From assembly GCA_038887515.1 (NCBI GenBank), contig JAWAKK010000001.1:390205-454204 (forward strand): DNA of 64,000 nucleotides. Reading direction: 5' to 3'. Shown here one piece after another: positions 2,030 to 19,844 of this stretch. The DNA comes from Candidatus Nezhaarchaeales archaeon. GTDB taxonomy: Archaea > Thermoproteota > Methanomethylicia > Nezhaarchaeales > WYZ-LMO8. Every line of letters starts with the position of its first letter. Positions within the stretch are counted from its first letter, which is position 1. The notes under the pieces are model-generated. The model saw only the letters and a program-made list of their open reading frames with translations, did no database searches and was not told the DNA's origin. The translations under genes and the position numbers were made by a program.

Positions 2030-2335
2030 TCAAATGTAATCATCGAGACTTATATATTAAGGATATCCAAAGCCTTGAAAATTAATTTGATGACATAAGA
2101 ACGTTGTAAGCTCAAGAAGCGCTAAGCTCTTCTTTGGGACGTCGAGGCTCCGCATCGTAATAGCTTCTCAAGATAGCATCAATATAGTTGATGACAATTT
2201 ATGAAATGGATAGTCAAATGAATTCGATGTGGCATTTTGATGCTTAAAGGAAAGAGGAGTTGAAGCTTTAAGTGATTTGCGCATCAAGCTTCATTTAGAA
2301 GAAATTTTTAAACTTCCTTCGATTAGCCGCTCATC

Positions 2336-3523
2336 GTGTGGTGGCTAAGCTTCGTCCTTCACGAAGCAGGGTTTAACCTGCTGTTGATATTGCTGCCACT
2401 CTACGTGGTCTCCATTGGTGGATCGCTCACTGATGTAGGCATTATGTGTATGATAGGGCAGCTCGTAGCCATTCCAGCTTCAATGTTTTGGGGCTACATC
2501 TGCGATAAAGCGAGGAGTTACAAGCCCTTCATCATCTTATCCTTCTCATCCCTCTCAATAGCTATATACTCCTTAGTAGTGGTAACTAAAGTAAGTCATC
2601 TGATCTTCCTTTATGCTATATTATCAATATTTCATTCAGCTCACGGTCCTCCACGAAATGTGCTGATAGCAGAACTACACACATATGAAGAATGGAAAAG
2701 GAGCTTTGCAGTATTTGGAGGGTTCGCGGAGATCGGGCGGCTTATAGGATTGCTCATGGGCGCCTACATTTCATTTAGCGGGGCAAGTACCATCTCTCTG
2801 ATATCCTTATGTGGTAGCCTACACATAGCTGCCCTCCTCTTATCCATCATCCTTATTAGAGATCCCATTTTGATTCTAGAGCGCCGTTTAGTATACATAA
2901 AGAGGATGGTGGACTTAGTAGATAGAGGGACTTATGCTTTCTGTAAAGCTCTCGATGGGTTCTCTAGAGTTTGTAACCTTAAGGAGGTGAATGTAAAAGC
3001 TTTTTATGCTGGATTAACCTTCTTCCAAGCAGCATCAACCATGCTCTTCACTCCATTGCCTATATTTCTCTCACGTGAACTAGCCCTCCAACAAGGCCTA
3101 GTCTTCACTATATATACCTTAAACTCCTTGGGTGTTGTTCTAGGTTACTTACACCTAATTTATCGATCTAGCGAAAATGTTGAGAAGACCTCTTTGCTTA
3201 AAGTCGTGCTACTAAGAAGTGTAACGGTCTTCTTAATGTTCATTGCACTATCATCGACCTTTAATGTAGTGATAATTACAGCGTTGCTAACCCTGCTAGG
3301 CTATCTCTATGCGCTATTCTACGTCTATGTGTTGACTATTTCTATGGAGCTTTTACCTCCTAAGAAAGTGGGGTTAATTGACGCCATAATAAACCTGGGC
3401 TCGGTTTATGGAGCCTTTATTGGACAGCTTATAGCCGATAAGGTGGGCTTTAACTACGTGTTCCTATTGAGTGGGCTAACATTCTTCGCTTCATTCATAG
3501 CGTTTAAAGTCTTCAATAGATAG
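2336..3523 (+). CDS. MFS-type transporter, paralog A (GTG start)
   Basis: About 12 predicted TM helices. MFS loop motif 'GYICDKARSYK' lies between TM2 and TM3. It is about 80% identical to the ORF at 33824..35011. Confidence 0.6.
   Translation: MWWLSFVLHEAGFNLLLILLPLYVVSIGGSLTDVGIMCMIGQLVAIPASMFWGYICDKARSYKPFIILSFSSLSIAIYSLVVVTKVSHLIFLYAILSIFHSAHGPPRNVLIAELHTYEEWKRSFAVFGGFAEIGRLIGLLMGAYISFSGASTISLISLCGSLHIAALLLSIILIRDPILILERRLVYIKRMVDLVDRGTYAFCKALDGFSRVCNLKEVNVKAFYAGLTFFQAASTMLFTPLPIFLSRELALQQGLVFTIYTLNSLGVVLGYLHLIYRSSENVEKTSLLKVVLLRSVTVFLMFIALSSTFNVVIITALLTLLGYLYALFYVYVLTISMELLPPKKVGLIDAIINLGSVYGAFIGQLIADKVGFNYVFLLSGLTFFASFIAFKVFNR
2704..2786. repeat. 83-nt tract perfectly identical to 34193..34275 inside otherwise ~78%-identical paralogs
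   Basis: Found by direct comparison of the two MFS copies. Identity drops to about 75-80% immediately on both flanks. Confidence 0.8.
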
Positions 3524-3650
3524 TTGTTTGACCATAAAGCTACTAGCCTAGAAATATGTGTCTTTGATGTAAAATGCTGCTTTAAGAGAAGACCTGAGCA
3601 ACTCTAACTGTTCACACGGCAGTAAGCAACATTAATTAATGTACGCTTCC

Positions 3651-4751
3651 TCAAACTTCAAAATGCTTCGCAAGCACTTTAACTCTTGAGGCTTTAATTT
3701 GCACAAAAACCGTGGCTCCGGGTTTAACATTGAAATCGTCAAGATAATCCGGGTTAATCTCAGCTTTTAGGTTAACATTGCCTAAATCGACGTCAACCTT
3801 AACAACTGATCCTTCCATATACATGCCTTTTACCCTTCCCACCAAGATGTTGCATTGGCAGCCTTTCCACTTCGGCTTGACGATCTCCCTCGTAGGCGAT
3901 AAAATGATATCTTGAGGTTTTATGACAACTATAACATCTTTAACTTTTTCTGGGAAGTTTCCACAACCCTCAGCATTCAAGATAGTGTCTCCAACATCGA
4001 CAGAGACGCGTCCATCCTCGATTGAAATGACATGTCCATCAAGGACATTATAGCCTAAAAATTCTGCGATGAATTTTGAACTTGGATTTTCAAATATAGT
4101 CTCAATAGAGCCTACCTGCTCAATCCTTCCATCACTCATTATGGCTATTTTATCACCGACTGCTCTCGCTTCCAACAGGTCGTGAGTTGTATGTATGACT
4201 GAAGTGCCAAATTGACGGAAGACCTCCTTAAGCATACCGCAGATTTCTCTTCTAAAAACTTCTCTTGTAGGTGGGTCCAGCGCTGAGCACGGTTCATCTA
4301 ACAATAAAACGTCAGGTTTAGCTGCTAAGGCTCTCGCAATAGCCACCCTCTGTTTCTGCCCAGAACTCAGGGACTCGACACTTTTATTCATTAAATTCTC
4401 AATTTGAAGTAGGCGTACGATCCTTTGAAGATCATTTAATCCCATGCCCTTCGATTTCTTAAATGCAAGCTGAATATTCCGCTCAACAGTCATATTCGGG
4501 AACAACACGTAATCAGCTGGTACATACCCGACTCTCCTCTTTTCTGGTGGAAGATCCGTGACGTCAATTCCGTTAATTATTATCTTTCCGGAATCGATCT
4601 TCTGAAGACCGGCTATGCATTCAAGCAGCGTCGTCTTTCCACATCCATTGGGGCCCATTAACGTAAGAATTGTGCCGCACTGAACTTCAAAGCTAATATC
4701 TGTTAAGAAGAAGGAGCCTCGTTGTGCATGCAAATTTAAAACAGTTATCAT
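3651..4751 (-). CDS. ABC transporter ATP-binding protein with C-terminal TOBE/Mop domain (ModC/WtpC-like)
   Basis: Walker A 'GPNGCGKTT' and signature 'LSSGQKQRVAIARAL' are present. A roughly 130-aa C-terminal extension is typical of molybdate/tungstate/sulfate importer ATPases. Confidence 0.75.
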   Translation of the reverse strand: MITVLNLHAQRGSFFLTDISFEVQCGTILTLMGPNGCGKTTLLECIAGLQKIDSGKIIINGIDVTDLPPEKRRVGYVPADYVLFPNMTVERNIQLAFKKSKGMGLNDLQRIVRLLQIENLMNKSVESLSSGQKQRVAIARALAAKPDVLLLDEPCSALDPPTREVFRREICGMLKEVFRQFGTSVIHTTHDLLEARAVGDKIAIMSDGRIEQVGSIETIFENPSSKFIAEFLGYNVLDGHVISIEDGRVSVDVGDTILNAEGCGNFPEKVKDVIVVIKPQDIILSPTREIVKPKWKGCQCNILVGRVKGMYMEGSVVKVDVDLGNVNLKAEINPDYLDDFNVKPGATVFVQIKASRVKVLAKHFEV

Positions 4752-5554
4752 ATAGCGAGCCCCCCGTACAAGAGCTTTCTAGTAGCTATTAATGCTAGGC
4801 AAGCTGTGAAGAGGAGAATAAATGACAAAGCAGCCACATTTCCTAAGTCTGCTGCAACGAGATTAAGATAGAGCGCGATGGGTAAGGTTTCAGTCTTGAA
4901 TCTAGTAGCACCGGCAAGCATGAGTGTTGCGCCAAACTCTCCCAACGCTTTAGCCCAAGATATGAGGGCTGCTCCAAGAATGCATCGCTTAGCAGCTGGC
5001 AACGTTACATATAGGAAAGTCTCCAACTCCGTGTATCCAAATGTCCGAGCAACTCTTTCATAGCGAGCAGGTACTCCATCGAAAGTCTCTTTTAGGAGCT
5101 TTATTGTTAAAGCGCTTATTACAGCTAATTGGGCTACGATGATCCCCGGGACTTCGAAGACAATCCTTACAACACTTTCATTTATGAACATACCTAGAGG
5201 ATTTCTCGCGAAGAAAATAAGTAGCATAACTCCTAGTGCGACTGGAGGAACTGCTATAGGTACGTCTAGGAAGCCTTCAATCACGGTTTTCCCCCGAAAT
5301 TCGAGACGAGATAGAGCGTAAGCTACTGGAATGCCGATGACTAGAGAGATTAAAGTTGAACATGTAGCGGTAAAGATTGAGAGGGAGAGAGCGAACCTTA
5401 CTTCATCAGAGATAAAAGCATATGCGAGCTGCCAAGGATCAACAAAGATTGCTGGCGATGTAAAGACGCATAAGAAGAATATCAAAATGAGTATTAAGAA
5501 GGAGAACACTACGACTCTGAACACATTGGGCTTCATGCTACCCAAGCTCCTCAA
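4748..5554 (-). CDS. ABC transporter permease (ModB/WtpB-like)
   Basis: Six-TM permease with an EAA-like loop. It overlaps the ATPase by 4 nt. Confidence 0.75.
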   Translation of the reverse strand: MRSLGSMKPNVFRVVVFSFLILILIFFLCVFTSPAIFVDPWQLAYAFISDEVRFALSLSIFTATCSTLISLVIGIPVAYALSRLEFRGKTVIEGFLDVPIAVPPVALGVMLLIFFARNPLGMFINESVVRIVFEVPGIIVAQLAVISALTIKLLKETFDGVPARYERVARTFGYTELETFLYVTLPAAKRCILGAALISWAKALGEFGATLMLAGATRFKTETLPIALYLNLVAADLGNVAALSFILLFTACLALIATRKLLYGGLAI

Positions 5555-6401
5555 TTATTGCATTTGGAGCATAGGCTCTAGCTTCCTCTAATGTCGAGAA
5601 GTATCCATACTTTGCCCAAACGCCATGCATGTCCTGTGAAGTTAAGAAGTCTAGAAACTTCTCGGCAAGAACTTTATTTTTACTATATGTTGACACTGCT
5701 CCAGCTATGTAGCCTATCTTCAGGATCTTATTCGGTTCGATCCACACGATGTCAGTCTTCTCGGGGCTCCAATAATGGAAAACGTGCCACCCGATTACGG
5801 CATCCACAGTACCAATGTAGATTAGCTGAGCCGTCGCCTCGCAGCTAGCCGCGTAAACAGCAATATTCTTACTAACAGCTTCCCAAAGCCCATTTATCTC
5901 TAAAAGCTCCTTAGCGTAAAGACCGACACAAACAGATTTAGGATCAGCTATTCCAACATGGATTCCAGGTCTTGCAAGATCCTCAATTGACGTGATGTTC
6001 TTCGGATTTCCTTTCTGAACAATGATTGCTGGAACTAGATAAGCAAGTATTTTTGCTGGGTGCTCAGTAAGGTTAACAACATTCCTCTCATTTGCCAAAA
6101 TAAGATATTCTGGCGAACCCGGAATATAGACGTCGCCTGTTCTTGCAATTTCCATAGACGACAGCAAACTCCCTGAGCCACCAAGCTTCAACTCAACTTT
6201 AATGCCATACTTCGATTCAAAAATGCTAGCAGCTTCTCTATAAACGGGAGCGGCGGCTGCACCAGCGAATACGACGATCGATTGATCTGCTGGGTTGCTA
6301 CCATAGAACGTATAAATGACTACTCCAAGTGCAACTAATATGAGACCAATCAGAGAAGATATGTTCAAAAGTCTCAAATGAGACCTGCTTGGCTTCATCA
6401 A
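5538..6401 (-). CDS. Molybdate/tungstate-type periplasmic substrate-binding protein (ModA/WtpA family)
   Basis: N-terminal signal anchor. 'GGSGSLLSSMEIARTGDVYIPGS' is similar to the ModA 'GSSG...AD.F.SA' region. It is the first gene of the three-gene transporter operon. Confidence 0.65.
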   Translation of the reverse strand: MMKPSRSHLRLLNISSLIGLILVALGVVIYTFYGSNPADQSIVVFAGAAAAPVYREAASIFESKYGIKVELKLGGSGSLLSSMEIARTGDVYIPGSPEYLILANERNVVNLTEHPAKILAYLVPAIIVQKGNPKNITSIEDLARPGIHVGIADPKSVCVGLYAKELLEINGLWEAVSKNIAVYAASCEATAQLIYIGTVDAVIGWHVFHYWSPEKTDIVWIEPNKILKIGYIAGAVSTYSKNKVLAEKFLDFLTSQDMHGVWAKYGYFSTLEEARAYAPNAIIEELG

Positions 6402-6598
6402 TTATCGTCCTTTTATTGCTGGGAAGAGATGGTTATATCTTCAACCTTATAAGACCTACTGAAAACTAGTTTTAACTTTCTATAGTTAACAATTTAATTT
6501 AAATTCATAGTAATGGCGTAGAGCTTATGGTTTCTGGAGTAATGTTTATAAGCAAATTCATATCATTAGTGTTACGAACTGATAGTTAAGGTGTTACC

Positions 6599-7252
6599 AT
6601 GCATATACCAGATGGTTTTCTAGATTTTACCACAGCTACCTTAACATATCTCGTAACCATCGGCTATGGCTATGTAGCTTGGAGGAGGTTCAAGGTCTCC
6701 TTTGCTCCTGAAAGAGTATCGCTTCTAGTTATCCTCTCAGTAGCAATATTTGTGGCTCAAATGTTGAATTGGCCTTTACCTGGAGGTACTAGCCTGCACT
6801 TTGTTGGTGGAGCATTAGCTGGAATGCTGCTTGGCCCTTTACTTGGCTTCATATCGTTAGCGCTAGTTGTTGGCGTTCAATGCATCATCTTCCATGACGG
6901 TGGAGTAACTACGCTTGGAGCCAACCTCTTAAACATGGCGATAATCGCGGTACTAGTGGGTTACGCAACATTCAAGATTACCATCAAGCTCATAGGAAAT
7001 AAGCGAAGCTCAAGAGCTATAGGTGCATTTATAGGTGGATGGCTGAGTATCGTGCTAGCTGGTCTTGCGTGTGGTCTTGAGATAGGTTTGTCGCCGGCAT
7101 TTGGCTTTTACATTGACGTCACAGTCCCAGTAATGGTTGGGTGGCATGCGATATTAGGTGTAGTAGAGGGTGTGATAACTTCCCTCGTGGTTGACTTTAT
7201 CTACACGAGATTACCTATGGCGACCTATAAGGGTGAGGGGGTAAAAGCATGA
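6599..7252 (+). CDS. cbiM: Cobalt ECF transporter substrate-capture component CbiM
   Basis: N-terminus 'MHIPDGFL' is the characteristic CbiM start. It is a multi-TM protein. Confidence 0.8.
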   Translation: MHIPDGFLDFTTATLTYLVTIGYGYVAWRRFKVSFAPERVSLLVILSVAIFVAQMLNWPLPGGTSLHFVGGALAGMLLGPLLGFISLALVVGVQCIIFHDGGVTTLGANLLNMAIIAVLVGYATFKITIKLIGNKRSSRAIGAFIGGWLSIVLAGLACGLEIGLSPAFGFYIDVTVPVMVGWHAILGVVEGVITSLVVDFIYTRLPMATYKGEGVKA

Positions 7253-7560
7253 GCAACCTCATCAAGAGCAAGAAGGCTTGGACAACAATAATAGTACTAC
7301 TAATTCTAAGCCCAATATTTGGTGTAGTACTAGCTGATATCGTCGGCTATCATGAGCCTCTCGATCTAGCAGCTGAAGCTATAGGTCTTCGTGATGTGAG
7401 CGAGGAAATAACTTGGACTCCATTCTTCGACTACAACGTTCCTGGCTTGCCAGCTGAGATCGGCTACATCATTAGTGGAGCTATAGGGGTCATTGCTATC
7501 ACGATGATAGGTTATGGAATCTTAAAATTGGCTGAGAAGAGAGTGAGGAGAAAGGTGTAA
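7249..7560 (+). CDS. cbiN: Cobalt transport protein CbiN
   Basis: 103-aa two-TM protein in 4-nt overlap with cbiM. This matches the canonical cbiMN arrangement. Confidence 0.7.
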   Translation: MSNLIKSKKAWTTIIVLLILSPIFGVVLADIVGYHEPLDLAAEAIGLRDVSEEITWTPFFDYNVPGLPAEIGYIISGAIGVIAITMIGYGILKLAEKRVRRKV

Positions 7561-7563
7561 TCT

Positions 7564-8355
7564 TTGTCTAAGAGCCTCTTATCATCGTTTTTAAACGGCA
7601 TAGCCGATGTGTTGGAGGTCTTCTCGTTTGAGAGGAAAGAAGATGTAAAGCTCTTTGACGACAGATCTATTTCTATTTCACTCTTAACGCTAGCTATCGC
7701 TGTCTCTTTCTCTAAGACCGTATATTCACCTCTAATAGTGCTCTTACTAATAGCCATACTAGCAAGGCTATTCAAAGTAGATGTTAGATACACGCTGAAA
7801 GTAGCAAGCGTAGTGGCTATCTTTGTTATGGGAGTAACGCTCCCAATGGCTTTGTACCAAGCATACATCAGCTACGATGTTAAAGGAGGCTTACTCGCAA
7901 GCTTAATGCCAATAGCGAGCAGCGTCACCATCCCACTAATATTAAGAGCTGTTGCAGCAGCTACTGCCGTAACGCTTATGGTTCAATGCTTGGGGTTAAC
8001 AAGATTAATGAAGGTGCTTAGAAGTCTAAGGTTTCCTCCAAAGCTCCTCTTCGTATTAACGTTATACATTAGGTACATACCCATAATGCTAAGACGGTTA
8101 GTAAGATTATTTTCAGCTCGTGAAGCGCGTTTACTGAGCAAAAGTAAATCGAAGAATTCTTGGTTTATGCTGTCAACGGTAGCAGGGAGCTTACTCATAA
8201 TTGGGTTTGAAAAAGCTCTTAGATTACAAATGGCTCTTAAAGCCAGGGGACTCCACTATGATTTGATCCCAACATATTCAGGAAAAATTAGCTTACAGGA
8301 TTCAATATTCATGGCATTAATGCTTGGATTAGCTTTCATGTTGGTGTTGATGTGA
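7564..8355 (+). CDS. cbiQ: ECF transporter transmembrane (T) component CbiQ (TTG start)
   Basis: Polytopic protein positioned between cbiN and cbiO. Confidence 0.7.
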   Translation: MSKSLLSSFLNGIADVLEVFSFERKEDVKLFDDRSISISLLTLAIAVSFSKTVYSPLIVLLLIAILARLFKVDVRYTLKVASVVAIFVMGVTLPMALYQAYISYDVKGGLLASLMPIASSVTIPLILRAVAAATAVTLMVQCLGLTRLMKVLRSLRFPPKLLFVLTLYIRYIPIMLRRLVRLFSAREARLLSKSKSKNSWFMLSTVAGSLLIIGFEKALRLQMALKARGLHYDLIPTYSGKISLQDSIFMALMLGLAFMLVLM

Positions 8356-8356
8356 A

Positions 8357-9289
8357 ATGAGTGAAAATGAGCCCCTAAAGCCACTAATAGAGCTTGAGAA
8401 TGTGTCATACACATATCCTGATGGAACTTGCGCACTTAAGAAGATTAGCGTTAAAATACCAGAGAAGAGCATTATTGCGATAACAGGGGCTAATGGATCC
8501 GGTAAGAGCACCTTGCTTCTGATAATGGCCGGCTTATTAGATCCTCAAGAGGGCTGCGTTAGGTTTAGAGGCATAGACATGAAGAAGCTTGGACACAAAG
8601 TAAGGCGCGAAATAGGAGTAGTCTTTCAAGACCCCGATGATCAGCTCTTCGCACCAACAGTCTACGACGACATAGCCTTTGGCTTAAGGCTTCTGAAGTT
8701 AAGTGAGAAAGAAGTTAGAGCGCGCGTCTATGAGATAGCGCGCGAGCTGGGCATCGAGAACTTGCTGAATAGACCTCCACATAGGCTTAGTGGTGGCGAG
8801 AAGCGTAGAGTAGCTCTCGCCACAACTCTGATCTTAAATCCATCAGTACTACTCCTAGACGAACCCTTCTCAGACTTAACTCCTTACGCAGTCGAGTACT
8901 TAATGGACTTTATCATGAAGCTTAGAGGCTCTGGGAGGACCATAGTGTTCACGAGTCACGATATAGACATCGTCGCTGAGTTATCCGATTACGTCTACGT
9001 CTTAGCCAAAGGTCAGTTAATAGCTCAAGGAAAGCCTAACGAGGTTCTGTGCAACGATGAGCTGTTGAGCAAAGCCGAGATGAGACCTCCAACAGTGACG
9101 ATCATATATAGAGAGCTTATGGGCTATAGTGATAGATGTCCCATTAAGATGTCAGAACTTTTATCAATACTAAGAAGTAGAATCGTAGCCCCTCATTCGC
9201 ATGATGGTGTGGCATGCAATAAGTTTGCCTTAAGTGAGGAGAAAATCAGCTATCTAACAAAATCACCACAATATGATGGGAGTTTCTGA
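8357..9289 (+). CDS. cbiO: ECF transporter ATPase CbiO
   Basis: Walker A 'GANGSGKST', signature 'LSGGEKRRVALA', and the Q and H loops are present. Confidence 0.8.
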   Translation: MSENEPLKPLIELENVSYTYPDGTCALKKISVKIPEKSIIAITGANGSGKSTLLLIMAGLLDPQEGCVRFRGIDMKKLGHKVRREIGVVFQDPDDQLFAPTVYDDIAFGLRLLKLSEKEVRARVYEIARELGIENLLNRPPHRLSGGEKRRVALATTLILNPSVLLLDEPFSDLTPYAVEYLMDFIMKLRGSGRTIVFTSHDIDIVAELSDYVYVLAKGQLIAQGKPNEVLCNDELLSKAEMRPPTVTIIYRELMGYSDRCPIKMSELLSILRSRIVAPHSHDGVACNKFALSEEKISYLTKSPQYDGSF

Positions 9290-9514
9290 CGGCGATGACG
9301 ATCACCATGGCATAATGACATCAACATGCGATGAGAGGGCTGTAGATTATTAATGTCATAACCTAAATGATGAGATTCATCTCGTATTATCGTCACGTGA
9401 CTAAAGTCAACAGCTATGATAGGATAGGAGAAAGGCTACGGATGGATTATTCATCCAAAGTCTTTATAACTCTGAATTTAAGAGACAGCGAGGGGTGTCG
9501 GTGGTTTTTAGGAG

Positions 9515-9841
9515 ATGAAGGCTATCATTATAATCGGTGATGGAATGGCTGATCGACCGTTAGAGGAGCTCAACTTCATGACTCCATTGGAAGCTACTAG
9601 AGTAAACAACATGAACTGGCTTGCCTCAAATGGCATTTCAGGGCTTCTCTGTTCAACAGTTCCTGAAAGTGATGTAGCGAACTTAGCCGTCTTCGGCTAT
9701 GATCCCTCTAGCGTTTACACTGGTAGAGGGGGGTTCGAAGCTGTTGGAGCTGGAGTCCAACTTTTGGATGAAGATTTAGCTTTTAGATGCGACTTCGCCA
9801 CTATTCTTACAGCTCTATCAAGGAGCTCTACGAGGTTGTAG
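9515..9841 (+). pseudogene. apgM: N-terminal ~100-codon remnant of archaeal cofactor-independent phosphoglycerate mutase (ApgM)
   Basis: 'MKAIIIIGDGMADRP...TPLE...GISGLL.TVPE...SDVANLAVFGYDP...YTGRGGFEAVGAGV...AFRCDF' matches the ApgM N-terminus. The ORF stops after 108 aa, whereas the full protein is about 410 aa. Confidence 0.55.
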
Positions 9842-10182
9842 AACGTGTCCCTAAATATCCCGCATATCGTGACCACTACATCTATTCTAGGTCTACCGAG
9901 CTCTGAGAGAGGTATTACTTCGAGGTCCCTAATGTACAGGCCTCTCCAAACAGGTTTTACACCTAGAAGGTGGAATATTGCTGCTAGCGTCTCTCCACCG
10001 GTCTTCATGGTCTCAAAGGCCCATAAAACAACGCCAACGGCCTTCGGGTACCTCCCATTCTTCTGGTAGAACCTCTTAAGATATTCTTCAGCTATCTTCT
10101 TACCTCTCTCCTCCTTCTTGCAATCTTCACTACGCCTACTATCAAAAATGGTATCGCAATGGCGAACCAAACTGCTACCCAT
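9715..10182 (-). pseudogene. cobN: Internal fragment of cobaltochelatase CobN / Mg-chelatase H family
   Basis: 'YPKAVGVVLWAFETMKTGGETLAAIFHLLGVKPVW...LEVIPLSELGRPRIDVVVTICGIFRDTF' matches a conserved CobN block. The ORF is 155 aa, whereas CobN is over 1000 aa. It overlaps the apgM remnant. Confidence 0.55.
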
Positions 10183-10220
10183 AATGGAGAAAGAAAACCA
10201 TCCATTATATGCATAGGAAT

Positions 10221-10237
10221 CACTAGCTGGATAGATT
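10221..10237. promoter_or_regulatory. Perfect 7-bp inverted repeat CTGGATA-gat-TATCCAG in the intergenic region upstream of cbiC
   Basis: Read directly from the sequence. Candidate operator or hairpin. Confidence 0.3.
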
Positions 10238-10445
10238 ATCCAGCCAACTCATATAAAACTTACCATCAACGTAATTACTGTTGGGAAGAGATGTCTTAAA
10301 GCAAGATGTTGGCTTCTCTGTTTATGAAGTCGTGACCGCACTTAGCCTATATTAAGGTTAGATGGTCAACTTACTTAGCCATTTAAGGACGAGGTCTAGA
10401 GTGAAGTTTAAATTGTTGGTTAGCTTCACCTATCCTTAAGGCTGG

Positions 10446-11129
10446 ATGGGTTATCCAACCATGGATCAACATCACGATCCTGATGACATTCAAGCTTCGA
10501 GGGCACTTCTATCCATGAGCATCAATAAGGTTAGAGAGCTTATTGGAGATTACTTAAGAAGTTTGCCAGCAAGCCATGCGAGAATCGTTGAGCGAGTCGT
10601 GCATGCTACTGCGGATCCAGAGTTTGCTAAACTAGTAGTTATAAGTAATGGAGCTGTCGAAAGTGGGATCAAAGCCATAAGGGCTGGCGCAAAGGTCGTG
10701 ACCGACGTTAAGATGGTTAAAGCCGGGTTGAGAGAAGTAGGGCTTAGAAGGTTTGGAGGAAGAGTTGAGTGCTACGTGGATGATGAAAGAGCCATTAAGG
10801 TAGCTCGAGAAGAAGGAATAACTAGAACTGCAGCGGCAATGCGAGTCGCCGTCGAGATGGGGTTAAACGGAGCGATAGTCCTGATCGGGATATCTCCCAG
10901 TGCAACACTTGAGCTGGTTTCAGCTATTAAGAGAGGAGAAGCAAAGCCAGCTCTGATAGTTGCAACACCAGTTGGTTTCATAGGGGCTAGAGAGTCTAAA
11001 GAGGAGGTCATGAAGCTACCAATCCCCTACATAGTCGTAACAGGTTCAAAGGGTGGTAGCCCCGTAGCTGTAGCAATATTCAATGCGCTATTAACGTTAG
11101 CAGAAGAGGGTATGGAGGGCTTCACTTGA
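10446..11129 (+). CDS. cbiC: Cobalt-precorrin-8 methylmutase CbiC
   Basis: 'HATADPEFAKLVVISNGAVESGIKAIRAGAKVVTDVKMVKAGL' matches the CbiC/CobH core. Its size is about 210-230 aa. Confidence 0.75.
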   Translation: MGYPTMDQHHDPDDIQASRALLSMSINKVRELIGDYLRSLPASHARIVERVVHATADPEFAKLVVISNGAVESGIKAIRAGAKVVTDVKMVKAGLREVGLRRFGGRVECYVDDERAIKVAREEGITRTAAAMRVAVEMGLNGAIVLIGISPSATLELVSAIKRGEAKPALIVATPVGFIGARESKEEVMKLPIPYIVVTGSKGGSPVAVAIFNALLTLAEEGMEGFT

Positions 11130-12214
11130 AGTTTCTAAAGTACGGGATTTCGACAGGTGCATGTGCAGCTGCTGCAGCTAAAGCTGCTGCTCTAGCCTTG
11201 ATGGGGGTCAAGACTGATAAAGTCAGCATTCCAACACCTATTGGACTACGACTTGAAGTACCTGTTGAAGGGTGTCGAAGAATCGACGATGAGAGGGCAG
11301 TGGCTTGGGTGGTAAAGGATCCTGGAGATGACGTTGACGTAACTAGGGGGCTTAAAATACATGCTACTGTTAGGCTTACTAGAGATGGAGAGATCGTCAT
11401 AAAAGGTGGAGAAGGCATCGGAGTAGTCACCAAGCCTGGATTACCAGTCCCCGTAGGAGAGGCGGCTATAAACCCCGTGCCCAGAATGATGATCAAACAA
11501 GCTCTTCAAGAAGTACTGCCTCCAGGCATTGGCGCCGAGGTCTTGATAGAGGTCCCCGGCGGTGATGAGGTAGCAAAGAGGACCCTCAACCCAAAGCTTG
11601 GCATCATTGGAGGAATATCGATTCTAGGCACCACCGGAATCGTGAAACCACACTCTACTTCAGCATATAAGCGTTCGCTCTCAGTTCAAGTAGACGTAGC
11701 TTTGGCTAATGGGCATGATAGAATAGTCATAGTTCCTGGGAACGTTGGTGCGAGGGTTGCCAGACAGCTCCTCAAAATCCCAGATGAGGCTATAGTGCAA
11801 GCAGGCGACTTCATCGGCTACATGCTTCGTAAAGCAGTAGAGAAGGGGGTGAAAGAAATCCTGCTAGTTGGACATGCAGGTAAGCTTGTGAAGATCGCAG
11901 CAGGCATCTTCAATACTCATCATAAAGTTGCTGATGCTAGAATGGAGGTCATTGCAGCATATGCTGCTGCAGCAGGAGCTGATAATCATCTAGTTAAGAG
12001 AATCTTAGAAGCTAACACAACGGAGGAGGCTATTAAGCTCCTTCAACTTCATGGAATCCTTAAGCAAACCTTCAACATGATTGCTGATAGAGCCAGGTCT
12101 AGGTGCATTGACCTAATCGATGGAAGGGCAAACGTAGGCATCATAATAGTGTCGCTTGAAGGTGAGGTTTTAGGAGTTAGTGGCGTTGATAGGTGGTTGT
12201 CAGCACATGGCTAA
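11126..12214 (+). CDS. cbiD: Cobalt-precorrin-5B (C1)-methyltransferase CbiD
   Basis: 'GISTGACAAAAAKAAALAL' is the CbiD signature. Length is 362 aa. Confidence 0.85.
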   Translation: MKFLKYGISTGACAAAAAKAAALALMGVKTDKVSIPTPIGLRLEVPVEGCRRIDDERAVAWVVKDPGDDVDVTRGLKIHATVRLTRDGEIVIKGGEGIGVVTKPGLPVPVGEAAINPVPRMMIKQALQEVLPPGIGAEVLIEVPGGDEVAKRTLNPKLGIIGGISILGTTGIVKPHSTSAYKRSLSVQVDVALANGHDRIVIVPGNVGARVARQLLKIPDEAIVQAGDFIGYMLRKAVEKGVKEILLVGHAGKLVKIAAGIFNTHHKVADARMEVIAAYAAAAGADNHLVKRILEANTTEEAIKLLQLHGILKQTFNMIADRARSRCIDLIDGRANVGIIIVSLEGEVLGVSGVDRWLSAHG

Positions 12215-12887
12215 GATCTACATTGTCGGCGCTGGTCCAGGAGATCCTGACTACGTGACTCCAATTGCCAGGAAGATGGTTAGGCAGGCGGAGTTGGTAA
12301 TAGGCTCAGAGAGAGCAGTTAAGCTCTTCAATAACGACGTAAGAGGAGAGGTCATCATTCTCGATTCGAGGAATTTTAGGGAGGTAATGGTTTACGCTGT
12401 AGAACGAGCAAGAAGTGGAGCAAACGTAGTAATGGTATCCACAGGAGATCCTGGCTTCGCTGGTCTACTTGGAACATTCATAAAGAGTTTTGGAACAAAA
12501 TTGGACGTGGAGGTTGACGTCATCCCTGGAGTAAGCGTCATTCAAGTATGCGCTGCTAAACTCAAGATCTGTTGGGATGATGCTGTCCTAATTAGTCTTC
12601 ATGAGGGCGCAACCGAAGAAAAGAGGAGGAGACTGGCTGGAGCTGTTAAGTCGGGTAAGACGGTAATCCTCTTGCCAAACACTAGGTCTTTCACTGTCAG
12701 GGATGTCGTGAAGTACCTCTTGAGCGAGGGAGTAGACGAGGAGACAATCGCGTACGTGTGCGAGGACTTAACTCTTAGTAGTGAGAGGATCGTTAAAGCC
12801 ACTTTAAGAGAATTAATGTCCTACGAGGGTAGCTCTCTATGCGTTATGGTGATCACTCCAAGGAGGGGTAATTGTGTGGAGCTATAA
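12207..12887 (+). CDS. cbiE: Cobalt-precorrin-7 (C5)-methyltransferase CbiE
   Basis: 'MAKIYIVGAGPGDPDYVT' is a tetrapyrrole-methylase N-terminus. The likely start is the ATG at 12207, within the ORF that is open from 12180. Confidence 0.75.
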   Translation: MAKIYIVGAGPGDPDYVTPIARKMVRQAELVIGSERAVKLFNNDVRGEVIILDSRNFREVMVYAVERARSGANVVMVSTGDPGFAGLLGTFIKSFGTKLDVEVDVIPGVSVIQVCAAKLKICWDDAVLISLHEGATEEKRRRLAGAVKSGKTVILLPNTRSFTVRDVVKYLLSEGVDEETIAYVCEDLTLSSERIVKATLRELMSYEGSSLCVMVITPRRGNCVEL

Positions 12888-13467
12888 AACACCTGGAATA
12901 CCGGATGAGCTCTTCATAACTAGCGATAAGGTTCCTGGACCAACCAAAGAAGAGGTAAGAGTTGTGACCATATCGAAGGCAAGGCTTAAGGAGGGATGTC
13001 GCGTTGCTGATGTTGGTTGTGGTGTTGGAAGCATAACTGTCGAAGCTGCATTAATTGTTGGCTCTACGGGGAAAGTATACGCTATTGATAAAGATGAAGA
13101 GGCTATTAGAATCACGAAGCTGAACGTGGCTAAATTTGGCGTTCAAGATCGCGTTCAGGTAATACTTGGGAAAGCTTCTAAGGTTCTTGAGCTAATCCCG
13201 GAGGTCGATAGCATAATAATAGGAGGTGGAAGGCCCTTATCCAAGGTCCTTGAAGCTGCTGTTAAGAGACTGAAGTTTGGTGGACGCATCGTAATCAATG
13301 CGGTCACTGTTGAAACGGCGAGTAGAGCTATCAAGATGCTCAAGAAGATGAAGTTCGGTGAGCTGGAAGTAGTTAACGTATCTATCGCTAAAGGCAAGCT
13401 TACCAACGCGGGAACTATCATGCTGGCTAGGAACCCTGTTTTCGTAATATCTGCGTCAAAATCTTGA
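12874..13467 (+). CDS. cbiT: Cobalt-precorrin-6B (C15)-methyltransferase (decarboxylating) CbiT (GTG start)
   Basis: 'VADVGCGVGSITVEAA...VYAIDKDEEAI' is a class I SAM-binding motif. Position after cbiE matches the cbiET pairing. Confidence 0.75.
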   Translation: MWSYKTPGIPDELFITSDKVPGPTKEEVRVVTISKARLKEGCRVADVGCGVGSITVEAALIVGSTGKVYAIDKDEEAIRITKLNVAKFGVQDRVQVILGKASKVLELIPEVDSIIIGGGRPLSKVLEAAVKRLKFGGRIVINAVTVETASRAIKMLKKMKFGELEVVNVSIAKGKLTNAGTIMLARNPVFVISASKS

Positions 13468-13477
13468 GGGAGCTATA

Positions 13478-13996
13478 TTGCTAGGCAAGTTATATGGTGT
13501 GGGTGTTGGTCCAGGCGACCCTGACTTACTGACTTTGAAGGCTGTAAAGGTTTTGGGTGATGTGGACGTAATATTCGCTCCAAAACCCAGCACTGACAAG
13601 CCTAGCTTAGCACTGACGATTGTTAAGCCAATGCTTAGAGACCATCAGGAAGTGGTAGAACTTGTCTACCCGATGACTAAGGAAAGAGAGGTCTTAGAAG
13701 CTTGTTGGGAAAAGAATGCTGACCTGATAATCTCAAAGCTCATGACAGGAAAGAACGCAGCCTTCATAACGTTAGGAGACCCCATGCTCTACAGCACCTT
13801 CATATATACTTGCAGGAAGATTGTAGCTAAAGCTCCTGACGTGGAGATAGAGATAGTCCCAGGAGTTACATCGATAACGGAATGTGCTGCAATCTCAAGG
13901 ACGTCCATAGCAGAAGGAGATGAAGTAGTGGTGATAATCCCTTCACTGAGTGATCGCGAAAAAATTAGAGGTCTAGCGAAGAAGCTACATCAATAA
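13478..13996 (+). CDS. cbiL: Cobalt-factor II C20-methyltransferase CbiL, C-terminally truncated (172 aa vs ~220-240 expected)
   Basis: 'MLGKLYGVGVGPGDPDLLTLKA' is the CbiL/CobI N-terminus. The protein ends shortly after '...VVVIIPSLSD' and lacks the last roughly 60 residues. Confidence 0.65.
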   Translation: MLGKLYGVGVGPGDPDLLTLKAVKVLGDVDVIFAPKPSTDKPSLALTIVKPMLRDHQEVVELVYPMTKEREVLEACWEKNADLIISKLMTGKNAAFITLGDPMLYSTFIYTCRKIVAKAPDVEIEIVPGVTSITECAAISRTSIAEGDEVVVIIPSLSDREKIRGLAKKLHQ

Positions 13997-14061
13997 TCAT
14001 AAGGGGCTTCATGGAGATAGACGTTAAAGGCTTACCGCCACTATTAGCTTCTCTCAGATAA
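13975..14061 (+). pseudogene. Relic of the 3' end of a SufB/SufD-family gene
   Basis: An alternate frame reads '[27 protein letters not shown]'. The intact sufB at 1290-1401 reads '[30 protein letters not shown]'. The frame is closed by a TAG just upstream at 13966-13968. Confidence 0.5.
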
Positions 14062-14111
14062 AGAGGGCATTAGATGTAGCGACCAAAGGCGTCCAGACAA
14101 CCTCCTTTCAC

Positions 14112-14135
14112 TTTCAGCTAAAAGCTAAAAGCTAA
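14112..14135. repeat. Tandem heptamer (GCTAAAA)x3
   Basis: 'agctaaaagctaaaagctaaaag'. Confidence 0.6.
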
Positions 14136-14249
14136 AAGAATTTAATCAATAATTTATAGAAAGTCCACATACAAAACTGAAAAATTAAAACATAGTTGAA
14201 AAGATGAATGAAGTACGTCTTGGGGTGTTAGTGAAGTACATGCCATTGC

Positions 14250-15179
14250 TTGCTGGTGTCGTGTATGAGGTTAAGGTATCGCCTGCAGAAGAGTCGGGAA
14301 GCGCTCATAATCTCTGTTTCGCTAAGCTCTCTAGGCGCAATTGTTGAAGGTGTGGCACTAACATTTTATGGGAGCATTATTCTCGCCACTGACTTTTTTC
14401 ACTGGGTCTTGGATACAATAGTTGAGGTTATGTTCCTATTTTCGATTTATTACGCTAGTAGAGTAGGAAAGAGGTTTCCTTGGAGTATAATAGCGCTTGA
14501 GTTCTTGACAAGCATAATAGTGATGATCGTTGTCTTAGGCTTCTATGGCTTCTACTTCTTCAATTACGTTAACAGCCTCATGCAACAGTATAGTGTATCA
14601 ACGGTATCGCCGCTGGCTGCAATAGCTACAGCTATTGGAGGAATAATTACTTTAACAGTGTTCGTGCTTCAAAGAAGGAACTACAGGAAATATTCGTTAG
14701 AGATCTTAAGAATTGATAGTAACCATGCACTGATAGATACCGCATCGTCTTTTTTCGCTACCTTTGGAATAATCCTTACAGCTTGGTTGGGAGACCCAAC
14801 GATAGAGATTTTTGCTACACTAATCATCATGATGTTCATAATTCATAGCATCTTTGAGATATTTAAAGATACCTTTAAGGTATTATCGGGAAGCAATTTA
14901 GATCACGAGATAACGGATAGAGTGAGAAGAGCCATCGAAGAGAGATTGTTCGATGCTAAATTAAAGAACGTGGAGGCTAGGAAGGTCGGATCGTTTTACA
15001 TAGTGTCTACCGATATATTTTTGGATCCAAACACCACCATTTCAAAAGCACATTCTTTACGCAGGAAGATCGTAAATTTAGTTAAAGAAGTCTCCGACCT
15101 CATTTACCATGTCGACGTTAAGTTCTATCCCTCGCTCGAATACAGGAGAGTTTTGAAAAAGCAAAAGAGGAGGAGTTAA
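14250..15179 (+). CDS. Cation diffusion facilitator (CDF) family metal efflux protein
   Basis: Six TM helices carry H..D pairs in TM2 ('FFHWVLDT') and TM5 ('NHALIDT'). The C-terminal cytoplasmic domain is '...VGSFYIVSTDIFLDP'. The true start may be an internal Met. Confidence 0.65.
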   Translation: MLVSCMRLRYRLQKSREALIISVSLSSLGAIVEGVALTFYGSIILATDFFHWVLDTIVEVMFLFSIYYASRVGKRFPWSIIALEFLTSIIVMIVVLGFYGFYFFNYVNSLMQQYSVSTVSPLAAIATAIGGIITLTVFVLQRRNYRKYSLEILRIDSNHALIDTASSFFATFGIILTAWLGDPTIEIFATLIIMMFIIHSIFEIFKDTFKVLSGSNLDHEITDRVRRAIEERLFDAKLKNVEARKVGSFYIVSTDIFLDPNTTISKAHSLRRKIVNLVKEVSDLIYHVDVKFYPSLEYRRVLKKQKRRS

Positions 15180-15260
15180 AGGTTTAAGTTTAAACCCCAA
15201 TTATACAGACTAAGGTATGTGGACGCTGTTGCGATGAAACCATTTGCGACTATTGATTGG

Positions 15261-16511
15261 CTACTCCTCTCTTCGCATAGGCTCTTTGATCAACGTTCCA
15301 ATCATTACCATTAACGGTATGCTAAGGGTCATTGCCAAGTAGAAAGGCGCCTTGGGCGATACATGTTCGTAGAGAGAGCCTCCTGCAAGATTTCCAAGAG
15401 CCATAAATATGACGCTAAGGAAGTTGGAAAGGGCATTAATCTTTCCTCTCTCGTCCCTAGGTGTGAGATCTGCGATAAGTGAGCTCGCCCCTGCGTACAT
15501 CATTACTTGGCCAGCTCCTACAAGTATCAAGGAGATTACTACTAAGAACGTGCTTCCATTTACGAAGAACCATATAGAGAAAGTAAAGAGTACGTAGGCT
15601 ACTATCAAGGATATCTTTCTGCTGGCCTTGTCGATTAACTTTCCTATCGGTATAGAGAAGACGACTGTAGTAACCGGTACAATTGTTAAGAGAAGCCCCC
15701 ATAGAGTCTCGTTTATCAATAATTCTCTCACCGCGTATACCGGGAGAAATGGTGTTATTGCGGAGAAACCCGATTGTCCGATAGCAACCGCTAAAACGAG
15801 GTATAAGAGAGACCTCGACGCTTTCTTGTACGCTGTTAAACATTCCCTAACCGCAATCGGGTAGTTCCTCCAGAGATTCGATACGCTAGGCTTCTCGGAA
15901 CCCCTAAAAGTCTCCTTTAAGTAGAACAATCTGAGGAAAGCCGCGGCGAGAAAGAAGGTGACCACTAACCCGTAACCCATCCTCATCCCCATCATCAACC
16001 CAAAGGTTCCACATAAATAAGCGGCGATTATAGGGCCTGGAGTCGTCGAGGCGTTACCTATTAGCGAAACTATACCGAAGCCCATGCCCCTCTTTTCGGG
16101 CGGTAGAGAGTCGGCCAGCATAGCCATGAGGGCTGGCTGATACATAGAGTTAAATACGGCCATTAGTACACTGCCCACTAAGATGAAGTGCCAGGAGGGG
16201 GCTAGGGCGAAGAATAGGTAACTTAAAGCCACCCCGAATGTCATGGTACATATTATCCACTTTCTCCCAAACTTATCGGCAATATAGCCTCCGGGAAACT
16301 GCATTGAAGCTAAAGCAATGAAGTGACAAAACCCTATTAGCCCTACTATAGTCTCGCTAGCCCCTAGACCGATTACGTATAGAGCATAGTAGACGGCTGG
16401 TATCTCCATCGCAAAATCCATGAGTAGCCAACTTACAACCAAGACGGCATAGTTTCCTTTAACGAAAGCTAGGTCTTCTCTGATATGCTGAATAAACCGT
16501 GCAACCATCAA
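15261..16511 (-). CDS. MFS transporter (416 aa)
   Basis: Twelve-TM topology with 'GGYIADKFGRKW' as the MFS motif A. Confidence 0.65.
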   Translation of the reverse strand: MMVARFIQHIREDLAFVKGNYAVLVVSWLLMDFAMEIPAVYYALYVIGLGASETIVGLIGFCHFIALASMQFPGGYIADKFGRKWIICTMTFGVALSYLFFALAPSWHFILVGSVLMAVFNSMYQPALMAMLADSLPPEKRGMGFGIVSLIGNASTTPGPIIAAYLCGTFGLMMGMRMGYGLVVTFFLAAAFLRLFYLKETFRGSEKPSVSNLWRNYPIAVRECLTAYKKASRSLLYLVLAVAIGQSGFSAITPFLPVYAVRELLINETLWGLLLTIVPVTTVVFSIPIGKLIDKASRKISLIVAYVLFTFSIWFFVNGSTFLVVISLILVGAGQVMMYAGASSLIADLTPRDERGKINALSNFLSVIFMALGNLAGGSLYEHVSPKAPFYLAMTLSIPLMVMIGTLIKEPMRREE

Positions 16512-16659
16512 CGGCTCGCCTCAAACACTCGCCGGAATAAACGCTAATTACTACTCAACGCTGAGGCTTCTACCTATAACTATAGATTTGCTTTAAACTT
16601 TATGTCTAATAGGCCTTCAAAATGATTGGTTTAGCAGGTCTCTATCGACCTTTTCATGT

Positions 16660-17721
16660 TTAATTAATATCCTTCGATTTTCTTTGTATCATGTATTGAT
16701 ACTTTACTTCTCCATCCATTATATAGTACACTAAACATTCACCATCTTCGGCTTTTAGTATCGGCTTTGTTAAGACTTCCGCTATTTTTACGAGGTCCCC
16801 AAGACTCTTCACGTCTATTGTTGTCCACGTCTCGGGAGGTAATCTCGTTGCCTCAATTATCAAGTCTTTATATTCTTCAGCCACTTTTTCGGTCTTTGCT
16901 ATTTCGCTAGACTCTTTCTTGGCCTTCCTTGAACCCTTAAAGTATAGGGCTGTCGATACGACTAATCCTGAAATCATAACTGCGGTCACAGCATAAGACG
17001 CATCTTTCTGTAGTTCGACGTCGGGGTACCCTACTTCAATAGTTTCCCTAATTTCTTTATTTTCAGTCTGGTTTAGGCCCTCCAGCGATATGTAGCTACC
17101 CTTATCGGTTGTCGATTTAAAAACTACGGTCAGCTGAGGGGTAAACTTTTCCCCTACTTCTCTCCCAGCAAGAACGGCTTCTATGTTTATGTTTGGCATC
17201 ACGTAGATACTATAGGAGGAGGAGTACATTCCCAACTCTTTGTCTATCGCATGAGCGATATTCCTTATTGCTGGACAGTTTATTTCAAGTGTAAAGTTTA
17301 GCGACCCCCTAAAATTCAATAACTCCACAAGTTCTGTCTCCTGCAGGTACTTTACCCATCTACCTGGCGATTCTATTTTTGCAGCCACACTCTCCATTGT
17401 TACGTTAAGCTTCTCTGGACTTGGGTTTGAAGCGAATACGTACGTAAATGTTACGTTAATCCTGTTCGTTAGAGATGTATACAAGATCCCTTCGTCGGGT
17501 CTCAATACGGTCTTATTATAAATGACGTTCGGCTTCAACTCTGCTACGCAATCGTAAAATGCTTTATGCATATATGAAGCTAAGGTTACCGTTCGCCTCT
17601 CAAACGTTGGCCTCTGTTGTACATAGTAAAGGTTTACGAGTGAGAAAACAGTTAGCGCAATGAAAGAAATGACCAATATTTTCTTAATTAACTCCTTGTC
17701 TTTCTTCATGCCTTTCATCAC
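16660..17721 (-). CDS. Hypothetical membrane protein (N-terminal TM, large extracytoplasmic domain, second TM near C-terminus)
   Basis: Long ORF with no recognisable motif. Confidence 0.4.
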   Translation of the reverse strand: MMKGMKKDKELIKKILVISFIALTVFSLVNLYYVQQRPTFERRTVTLASYMHKAFYDCVAELKPNVIYNKTVLRPDEGILYTSLTNRINVTFTYVFASNPSPEKLNVTMESVAAKIESPGRWVKYLQETELVELLNFRGSLNFTLEINCPAIRNIAHAIDKELGMYSSSYSIYVMPNINIEAVLAGREVGEKFTPQLTVVFKSTTDKGSYISLEGLNQTENKEIRETIEVGYPDVELQKDASYAVTAVMISGLVVSTALYFKGSRKAKKESSEIAKTEKVAEEYKDLIIEATRLPPETWTTIDVKSLGDLVKIAEVLTKPILKAEDGECLVYYIMDGEVKYQYMIQRKSKDIN

Positions 17722-18010
17722 TAGCCGTTTTCCTTATAATATTAATTTGACACATATTTTAGCCTTTACCATGTTTTTCCTTACGGCCATAAACGGATTA
17801 ATTCTTCTTTCTCGCAATAAGCGGGGTTGCCCCACGTGGGCTATATTGCCCCCTTTAAATTTTTTATTTACTATAATTCTTCATTATTTGCTGCGTTCTC
17901 AACGCCTTTCTATATCTATTAGATCTTTAAATGTGAGGAAATGACTACACGTAGTCGCCCAACTACAAAACTTAGAAAGTTCCGCTTCTGATAGACGTTC
18001 TCGACAAACC

Positions 18011-19786: not shown

Positions 19787-19844
19787 AGGTGGTTGGCAAG
19801 GTAGCAAAGTAGCCAGCGAAATCCACCAACACCCTAACATTTTA

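Follow-up and report, generated by a model that had tools for sequence, protein, structure and literature searches.

Gene stubs between a metal transporter and cbiC in a Nezhaarchaeales archaeon are very probably the leftovers of a cobamide biosynthesis array after two internal deletions

What are the gene fragments that lie between the transporter genes cbiM*N*Q*O* and the cbi biosynthetic genes of this Nezhaarchaeales genome, and how did they come to lie there? The window, which is the whole stretch of 64,000 nucleotides analyzed here, contains an interval at 9290-10445 that is bounded by the stop codon of cbiO* (9289) and the start codon of cbiC (10446). This is the gap in which a first-pass annotation, made from the sequence alone, had placed two fragments. 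In the ORF list, the main ORFs of the interval encode 108 aa (9515-9841, plus strand) and 155 aa (9715-10182, minus strand). The features of the interval and its flanks are listed below, with identities to the intact locus of sister MAGs.

6599-9289, plus strand: cbiM*N*Q*O*, intact ECF transporter genes, possibly for Ni or Co
8357-9289, plus strand: cbiO*, ABC ATPase gene whose stop codon forms the left edge of the interval
9290-9514, plus strand: native cbiO*-apgM intergenic spacer, 92% identity to the sister
9515-9804, plus strand: ApgM-family stub, codons 1-97 of 401 (NCBIfam, Pfam and alignment to the sister)
9794-10111, minus strand: cobN stub of 318 nt, CobN residues 877-982 of 1247 (blastn, PF02514 and tblastn)
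10103-10223, minus strand: cbiM2 stub, approximately the first 40 codons of a second, Bathyarchaeia-like cbiM (profile search and alignment)
10224-10445: native cbiM2/cbiC divergent intergenic region, 96.8% identity to the sister
10446-13467, plus strand: cbiC, cbiD, cbiE and cbiT, intact ORFs, 98-99% identity to the sister, now orphaned

The 108-aa ORF matches the apgM model TIGR00306 over positions 1-101 of 403 (E 1.3e-35) and PF10143 (E 1.4e-20). It is an apgM N-terminus, as had been proposed, limited to residues 1-97 of 401, which share 97.9% identity with the sister protein; the ORF then reads past 9804 to 9841 through antisense cobN. The N-terminal metal-binding Asp motif and the catalytic Ser region are present, with GDGMAD and ESDVANL conserved. 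The hallmarks of the full-length protein (approximately 400 residues; DxxxH, DH and the C-terminal His ligands) are absent from the stub and present in the full-length sister protein. The 155-aa ORF, which is identical to the NCBI protein MEM4576248.1 ("cobaltochelatase subunit CobN"), matches PF02514 (CobN-Mg_chel) over positions 731-838 of 1090 (E 4.6e-46). Both similarities are far beyond chance. The description of the 155-aa ORF as an internal piece of CobN holds for its domain but not for its extent: only 318 nt (9794-10111) derive from cobN, ungapped and at 98.7% nucleotide identity to sister cobN. The ORF is a composite: its first ~21 codons read the cbiM2 stub out of frame, its last ~25 codons are antisense apgM, and only residues ~22-129 are CobN. 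With 106 of 1247 residues, the piece falls far short of a full-length subunit of ~1100-1300 residues acting with partner ATPase subunits, and the chlID partner of CobN, present in the sisters, is absent from the window.

The first-pass annotation had recognized these two fragments, both of them real, but missed a third, the cbiM2 stub. Its ORF encodes 43 aa (10092-10223, minus strand, with the stop codon at 10092) and matches PF01891 over positions 1-34 of 205 (E 1.3e-7) and NF006184 (E 4e-10). Residues 1 to ~40 of the 217 of full-length CbiM2 are retained, including the MHIxDG motif and the first helix, and the rest of the ~205-residue membrane core is deleted. The stub shares 68-78% identity with the N-termini of Bathyarchaeia CbiM proteins, whereas the intact CbiM* of the window (6599-7252) shares only 25-31% with Bathyarchaeia CbiM, indicating two transporter types. 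The apgM and cobN fragments had been described as head-to-head, but they are tail-to-tail, i.e., convergent with overlapping 3' ends, and the real overlap between apgM-derived and cobN-derived DNA is confined to 11 nt (9794-9804). A sensitive tblastx search of the two spacers (9290-9514 and 10224-10445) found no gene remnants, and both are native intergenic regions. Neither Rfam matches nor tRNAs were found in the whole window.

Judged by sequence, the stubs in the interval 9290-10445 are non-functional. The earlier view that neither fragment can work is borne out by their truncation relative to full-length orthologues in collinear sister loci. The opposite proposal, that the stubs are useful, either as a new small protein (the 155-aa or 108-aa ORF) or through regulatory antisense RNA from convergent transcription at two preserved promoters, could point to the retained native upstream regions and start codons, to the ORFs being open, and to the PGAP call of the 155-aa ORF as a protein. 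We consider it extremely doubtful. The 155-aa ORF is an accident of reading frames around an internal CobN piece of 106 of 1247 residues, and no relatives of it were found outside its contig. Three of the metal-binding motifs in the full-length alignment are missing from the ApgM stub, and Rfam returned nothing. The divergence of the stubs is the same as that of neighboring genes, which is uninformative, yet gives no sign of special conservation. A conserved family of short CobN-like mini-proteins was also considered and rejected, the genomic contexts showing independently decayed, multi-frame cobN pseudogenes.

A search with the CbiC protein of the window found a 99%-identical CbiC on 15 contigs of Nezhaarchaeales MAGs, and an intact array accompanies such a CbiC in at least six NCBI assemblies and two Logan contigs. 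The first-pass annotation had suggested comparing syntenic loci, and it is in these sister MAGs that the intact, collinear array is found. As the reference we used JAVYOL010000001.1, where the intact locus spans 1070737-1110857, within a 40-kb sister composite whose overlap was verified to be identical, and the genes of the array were named by NCBIfam and precomputed Pfam matches. From left to right the sister array reads:

Left part: CLP1 (minus), MFS (plus), modCBA (minus), cfbB-like, cfbD-like and cfbE-like (minus), cfbC-like (plus)
Transporter and next genes: cbiM*N*Q*O* (plus), apgM-like (401 aa, plus), cobD (plus)
Following genes: cobY, cobS, cbiS and cbiB (minus), then cobT (plus)
Chelatase part, minus strand: dph6-like, fused chlI/D ("putative cobaltochelatase"), cobN (1247 aa)
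Second transporter, minus strand: frameshifted cbiQ2, cbiN2, cbiM2, with cbiO2 already missing
Right end, plus strand: cbiC, cbiD, cbiE, cbiT, cbiL (242 aa), cbiF, cbiG, cbiH, hemB, hemC, cobA, hemD

Sister DNA at this locus is 97-99% identical to the window. Three window segments were aligned by blastn to the composite, in the same order and orientation as on a single sister contig:

Window 6505-9804: composite 9905-13208, 96.6% identity
Window 9794-10111: composite 24202-24519, 98.7% identity, ungapped
Window 10103-13981: composite 29091-32974, 98.3% identity

Between these segments, 11,004 bp and 4,580 bp of the sister array are missing from the window. The larger deletion runs from codon 97 of the apgM-like gene to codon ~982 of cobN, and the smaller from codon ~877 of cobN to codon ~40 of cbiM2. 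Three-way alignment resolved both junctions to the base:

9794-9804: junction 1, 11-nt microhomology TTCGCCACTAT, one copy kept
10103-10111: junction 2, 9-nt microhomology CCTCTCTCC, one copy kept

At each junction the repeat is present at both sister endpoints and once in the window, and filler DNA is absent. In the 40-kb composite, TTCGCCACTAT occurs exactly twice, both copies being deletion endpoints, and CCTCTCTCC occurs three times, with the endpoints accounting for two. The calculated chance that a random junction has 9 or more matching bases is ~4e-5, and for 11 or more it is ~3e-6. A single retained copy of a short repeat at each junction is characteristic of microhomology-mediated deletion. 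With intact collinear sister loci and two microhomology junctions at base resolution, the suspicion that the region is a recombination scar is upheld. A deletion scar with pseudogene stubs is in itself a known kind of feature.

The scar very probably consists of the leftovers of an intact B12 array of the donor type after two internal deletions at short direct repeats. The precursor would have been a sister-like array, running from cbiM*N*Q*O* through the apgM-like gene and cobD to cobN, a damaged cbiQ2, cbiN2, cbiM2 and then cbiC to cbiH. Two internal blocks (11,004 bp and 4,580 bp) would have dropped out, each loss joining two copies of a direct repeat and keeping one, and the outcome would be three abutting stubs with native intergenic regions on either side. 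Most likely, DNA breaks would have been repaired by microhomology-mediated end joining (MMEJ), in which the ends are resected and anneal at the repeat, flaps are trimmed, and gaps are filled in and ligated. The junctions would fit equally well with a single replicative event in which the template was switched twice in succession, and this would account for the short 318-nt piece left between the deletions; two MMEJ events and one template-switching event would leave the same product.

A different origin for the three pieces would be patchwork capture, in which an apgM 5' end, an internal cobN piece and a cbiM 5' end were taken up separately as filler during repair of one break. The pieces are indeed short (~290, 318 and ~120 nt) and abut without spacers. 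However, the apgM and cbiM2 stubs are continuous with kilobases of donor-type flank (6505-9804 and 10103-13981), and three randomly captured pieces would retain the sister order and orientation in only ~1 in 24 to 1 in 48 cases, with continuity not counted. Because the outer stubs are continuous with donor DNA and order and orientation are kept, we regard separate capture as highly improbable. Two further models were dropped. A circularized fragment or tandem duplication that placed cbiM upstream of cbiC predicts the wrong orientation and is needless given the sister layout. An ancestor of the Bathyarchaeia type was also examined; in Bathyarchaeia the CbiC identity is at most 67-69% (GTDB and JGI), and the apgM-like gene and cbiM lie at opposite ends of a ~19-kb hem/cbi supercluster:

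Minus strand: apgM-like, hemD, cobA, hemC, hemL, hemB, sirC, cbiA
Plus strand: hemA, cbiX-cbiC, cbiD, cbiE, cbiT, cbiL, cbiF, cbiG, cbiH
Far end, minus strand: cbiO, cbiQ, cbiN, cbiM

Such layouts would need inversions, and the model was abandoned once the 99%-identical sisters were found. In one Bathyarchaeia lineage, the slot after cbiH is occupied by cobN-cbiZ-ABC.

Microhomology-mediated deletion is documented in archaea. Repeats of 4-20 nt are quoted for MMEJ in general; observed lengths range from >2 to <50 nt, and the Haloferax parent strain averages 11 nt (PMC12281630). MMEJ deletions of kilobase size are documented in Haloferax (PMC12281630; see also PMC5435918, PMC12019639). In Haloferax volcanii survivors of CRISPR self-targeting, kilobase deletions likewise keep one repeat copy (PMC5435918, PMC12281630). 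The present deletions, of 11.0 and 4.6 kb, have repeats of 11 and 9 nt and lack filler; unlike the Haloferax case, the event is a natural one in a MAG of an uncultured thermophilic member of the Thermoproteota, and the two deletions lie 318 nt apart. As in the FoSTeS/MMBIR model of template switching, two microhomology junctions bracket a short segment in its original order and orientation. That model was built mainly on human and yeast rearrangements, and we know of no demonstration of it in archaea.

The loss is recent, the stubs being as similar to the sisters (98.9% for apgM, 98.7% for cobN and 98.2% for cbiM2) as are the intact neighboring genes cbiC, cbiD, cbiE and cbiT (98.1-99.0%); too little time has passed for the stubs to degrade more. 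The deletions also appear specific to the genome of the window: the spacing between the NCBI protein accessions of CbiM* and CbiC is 17-19 in other comparable MAGs and 5 in this one, and the protein cluster of the 155-aa ORF has no other member beyond its own contig.

The scar lies within a larger mosaic segment of approximately 12 kb, both ends of which fall inside genes:

1948-13981: mosaic segment with the scar inside (blastn and sliding identity)
1948-2019, minus strand: CLP1_P' stub at the left end of the segment, first 24 codons of a CLP1-like gene (alignment; translation MERLVKIENLLGHYIAEGPLKIRL, then unrelated sequence)
13478-13981, plus strand: cbiL' stub at the right end, residues 1-168 of 242 (profile and breakpoint alignment)
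32160-33443, minus strand: CLP1, intact native copy (Pfam)

Positions 2947-6950 share 97-99% identity with one Nezhaarchaeales group, group 2 (JAWBRN010000006.1), in which modA directly abuts cbiM*, and positions 7005-13981 share 97-99% identity with group 1 (JAVYOL010000001). The crossover between group-2-like and group-1-like DNA lies inside cbiM*, at ~6950-7005. In contrast, the backbone of the window is only 72-79% identical to group 2. This backbone includes, at 28.6-49.3 kb, a native syntenic copy of Lhr-M42-CLP1-MFS ... nitroreductase-PK-Vut1-QueC-PhoH (72-79% to group 2), and the CLP1'-MFS pair in the segment thus duplicates the native CLP1-MFS pair elsewhere in the window. At the right end, cbiL' covers positions 1-158 of 212 of the TP_methylase profile, its 168 of 242 residues are 99.4% identical to the sister, and its ORF ends at a stop codon at 13996. 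The genes that follow cbiL in the sisters (cbiF, cbiG, cbiH and the hem genes) are absent from the window, and no relatives of at least 90% identity were found for the proteins immediately to the right of 13981. The contrast in similarity between the segment (97-99%) and the backbone (72-79%) is what would be expected of a horizontally exchanged segment. A search for flanking repeats or a target-site duplication around the 12-kb segment gave only 9-mers at chance level, and no integrase was present among the ORFs scanned, nor any tRNA in the window. An empty target site was likewise not found, the collections searched containing no relative of the backbone.

On these alignments, the simplest reading of the 12-kb segment would be a recent DNA exchange between related, co-occurring lineages. 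A more specific scenario would combine inter-lineage transfer with illegitimate integration at the ends in CLP1 and cbiL, homologous recombination in cbiM*, and one-step trimming by serial template switching; taken as a whole, we think this chain of events unlikely. If it did occur, the locus would be a natural snapshot of foreign-DNA processing by a hyperthermophilic archaeon, and the trimming would have just removed a B12-dedicated ApgM-family enzyme, a candidate for the missing archaeal step that forms threonine phosphate.

The same mosaic structure raises the possibility of an assembly or library artefact, i.e., a chimera of co-occurring Nezhaarchaeales populations with junctions that exist in no cell. 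The segment 1948-13981 switches from group-2-like to group-1-like inside a conserved gene, the DNA on either side of it belongs to a third lineage, group-2 DNA is also present in the sibling run SRR21619498, and template switching by polymerases in vitro can use microhomology as well. Nevertheless, assembler k-mers are far longer than the 9-11-nt repeats, the sequence at the outer ends is unique and not shared, and all three group-1 pieces keep the donor order and orientation. Window 2757-21129 is moreover 100.000% identical over 18,373 bp to a Logan contig of run SRR21619495, which may share reads with the NCBI contig; of the junctions, only the left one at 1948 falls outside this match. With junctions in unique sequence or at short repeats and an exact second assembly, an assembly chimera is very unlikely. 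Logan contigs are built by a conservative assembler that stops at branches; with the pipeline behaving in this way, a contig free of branches speaks against intact paths competing in the sample. Very probable, then, remains the loss of two blocks from a donor-type array.

Lost with the 11-kb deletion were cobD, cobY, cobS, cbiS, cbiB, cobT, the dph6-like gene and the fused ChlI/D subunit, together with the 3' three-quarters of the apgM-like gene and the 3' fifth of cobN. The sister cobD product (threonine-phosphate decarboxylase/HisC-like) scores 317 with TIGR01140 (cut-off 290.55). No second copies of the lost genes, or of cbiF, cbiG, cbiH or the hem genes, were found in the 64-kb window. In Bathyarchaeia, CbiC is fused to the CbiX chelatase domain; Nezhaarchaeales CbiC lacks this domain, and CobN with ChlID thus plausibly serves as cobalt chelatase in a pathway that is otherwise anaerobic in type. 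The sisters encode CobN and a fused ChlI/D inside a cbi cluster that is otherwise of the anaerobic type (cbiD, cbiG). The earlier proposal that an ancestral aerobic-type chelatase had been lost is therefore right as to the loss of cobN; the loss is, however, recent and looks genome-specific (stubs 98-99% identical to the sisters) rather than ancestral, and the label "aerobic-type" is misleading in such a cluster. At this locus at least, the class-I cobalt chelatase (CobN and ChlID), the whole nucleotide-loop branch and a putative threonine-phosphate-forming ApgM paralogue appear to have been lost, leaving cbiC, cbiD, cbiE and cbiT stranded. The organism would then have to import corrinoids or use genes located beyond the 64-kb window. 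Relatives in the class are reported to depend on corrinoid uptake (10.1101/2025.06.25.661132). As in other cases of reductive loss of cobamide synthesis with salvage, truncated biosynthetic genes adjoin retained transporters; here the loss is very recent, with stubs ~99% identical to functional orthologues, and lies inside an apparently exchanged segment.

For annotation, the 108-aa "ApgM", the 155-aa NCBI "CobN" and the 172-aa "CbiL" ORFs are best treated as pseudogene remnants and excluded from estimates of pathway completeness; otherwise, the MAG would be scored with a chelatase and cbi genes that it cannot use. The locus also provides base-resolved natural deletions at 9-11-nt microhomologies in an uncultured Thermoproteota lineage, and a loss of cobamide biosynthesis, very recent and apparently confined to this genome, beside a retained metal transporter, neither of which would surprise specialists. 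Its main value lies in annotation hygiene and in being a clean natural example.

The identity of the truncated apgM-like gene bears on what was lost. The intact sister protein scores 411 with TIGR00306, above the cut-off of 320, and 440 with the PGM equivalog model NF003104, below the cut-off of 489, and cobD directly follows its gene on the same strand. A Lys-to-Glu change of this kind is reported to separate homoserine phosphotransferases from PGMs (2026 preprint, 10.1101/2024.10.14.618325), and cobD-adjacent homologues in Bathycorpusculaceae have been speculated to make L-threonine-O-3-phosphate (GapMind, 10.1101/2024.10.14.618325). The ligand numbering quoted in that preprint is internally inconsistent. 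Bathyarchaeia homologues have Glu in HVE(G/A)PDE at the position of the Lys in HFKPTD of P. horikoshii PGM (2ZKT), the column being assigned by alignment to 2ZKT only and its equivalence to E299 of the preprint being inferred; these Glu-containing homologues sit at the ends of hem/cbi clusters. From gene context and profile scores, the stub is probably the remnant of a B12-pathway paralogue rather than of a glycolytic mutase. Like the cobD-adjacent homologues, which have a putative function only, the sister gene lies next to cobD. At the Lys/Glu column, however, the Nezhaarchaeales sister has Gly, i.e., neither Lys nor Glu.

The left boundary of the 12-kb mosaic segment (window 1948-13981), which contains the scar of apgM-like, cobN and cbiM2 stubs, is itself a gene stub, and at the right end of the segment cbiL is cut short:

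Window 1948-2019, minus strand: CLP1-like stub of 24 codons, the left boundary.
Window 13478-13996: cbiL (precorrin-2 C20-methyltransferase), truncated past residue 168 of 242, with the breakpoint at nt 13981.

A complete native CLP1-like copy is found at window 32160-33443, and the MFS genes are also duplicated, the copy at 2336-3523 being 76% identical to the native one at 33824-35011. The DNA 3′ of the cbiL breakpoint is unrelated, with a cation-efflux gene at 14265, and cbiF, cbiG, cbiH, hemB, hemC, cobA and hemD, which come next after cbiL in the sister genomes, are missing from the window.

Within cbiM* of the intact transporter cbiM*N*Q*O* (window 6599-9289), ancestry changes abruptly at window 6950-7005, from 97-99% identity with group 2 (e.g., JAWBRN010000006) to 97-99% identity with group 1, both groups being Nezhaarchaeales. 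The switch looks like a homologous-recombination crossover. Compared with the sisters, cbiO* in the window has a 1-nt deletion at approximately 9229 that frameshifts the final codons, and the product is 310 aa rather than 293, with an unrelated extra tail. The second transporter operon, cbiM2, is degenerating even in intact sister genomes (L151 7933-8831, an intact sister locus), where a frameshift divides cbiQ2 and there is no cbiO2, and therefore the operon was probably dispensable already before the deletion in the window.

Between modA and cbiM*, sister genomes possess four genes that both the window and group 2 lack at this position:

L155 5077-9897 (group 1 sister locus, JAVYOL010000001.1): genes for a CbiA/CobQ-type amidase-like protein, a nitrogenase-like Oxidored_nitro protein, a CfbE_C-containing Mur-ligase, and a NifH-like protein.

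These look like a coenzyme F430 biosynthesis set, cfbB/D/E/C. Since this F430-like set lies beside cbiM* in the sisters, the retained "cbiMNQO" may be a nickel rather than a cobalt transporter.

The B12 clusters include ApgM-family genes in both Nezhaarchaeales and Bathyarchaeia:

L155 12919-14124: Nezhaarchaeales ApgM-family gene, with cobD directly downstream.
Near 700-1200 in L003, L004, L008, L063, L066, L067, L069 and L071: ApgM-family genes of the Bathyarchaeia clusters.

In the H-x-K-x-x-D motif, the column of the Lys in the P. horikoshii phosphoglycerate mutase (2ZKT) is occupied by Glu in Bathyarchaeia and Gly in Nezhaarchaeales. L-threonine-O-3-phosphate has been proposed, as speculation, as the product of such proteins (10.1101/2024.10.14.618325), and the residue change and, in Nezhaarchaeales, the cobD adjacency fit that proposal.

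In Bathyarchaeia, an N-terminal CbiX/CbiK chelatase domain is fused to CbiC in proteins of approximately 350 aa (L003 9533-10630 and CbiC protein matches), frequently labelled sirohydrochlorin nickelochelatase. The Nezhaarchaeales CbiC is 227 aa, without the CbiX/CbiK domain, and is found together with CobN and ChlID. An independent cobN remnant is present in other hot-spring contigs:

L055 9550-10480 (JGI 3300005099), also in L056-L058: cobN remnant, strongly decayed by in-frame stops and frameshifts, with a Nitro_FeMo-Co-family gene upstream.

The L055 remnant is 72.6% identical in nucleotide sequence to the cobN stub of the window, and cobN decay seems to be recurrent among these archaea.

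The approximately 1.9 kb at window 23419-25280 contains no ORF of at least 120 aa on either strand, and several ORFs in the flanking 19845-23419 have no Pfam match. Two further genes, both in the window's native DNA, are probably truncated:

Within window 41515-42906: 248-aa ORF whose match to the CitMHS transporter profile is confined to its final third, positions 228-336 of 336.
Within window 41515-42906: 129-aa ORF with an MFS_1 match limited to positions 6-110 of 347.
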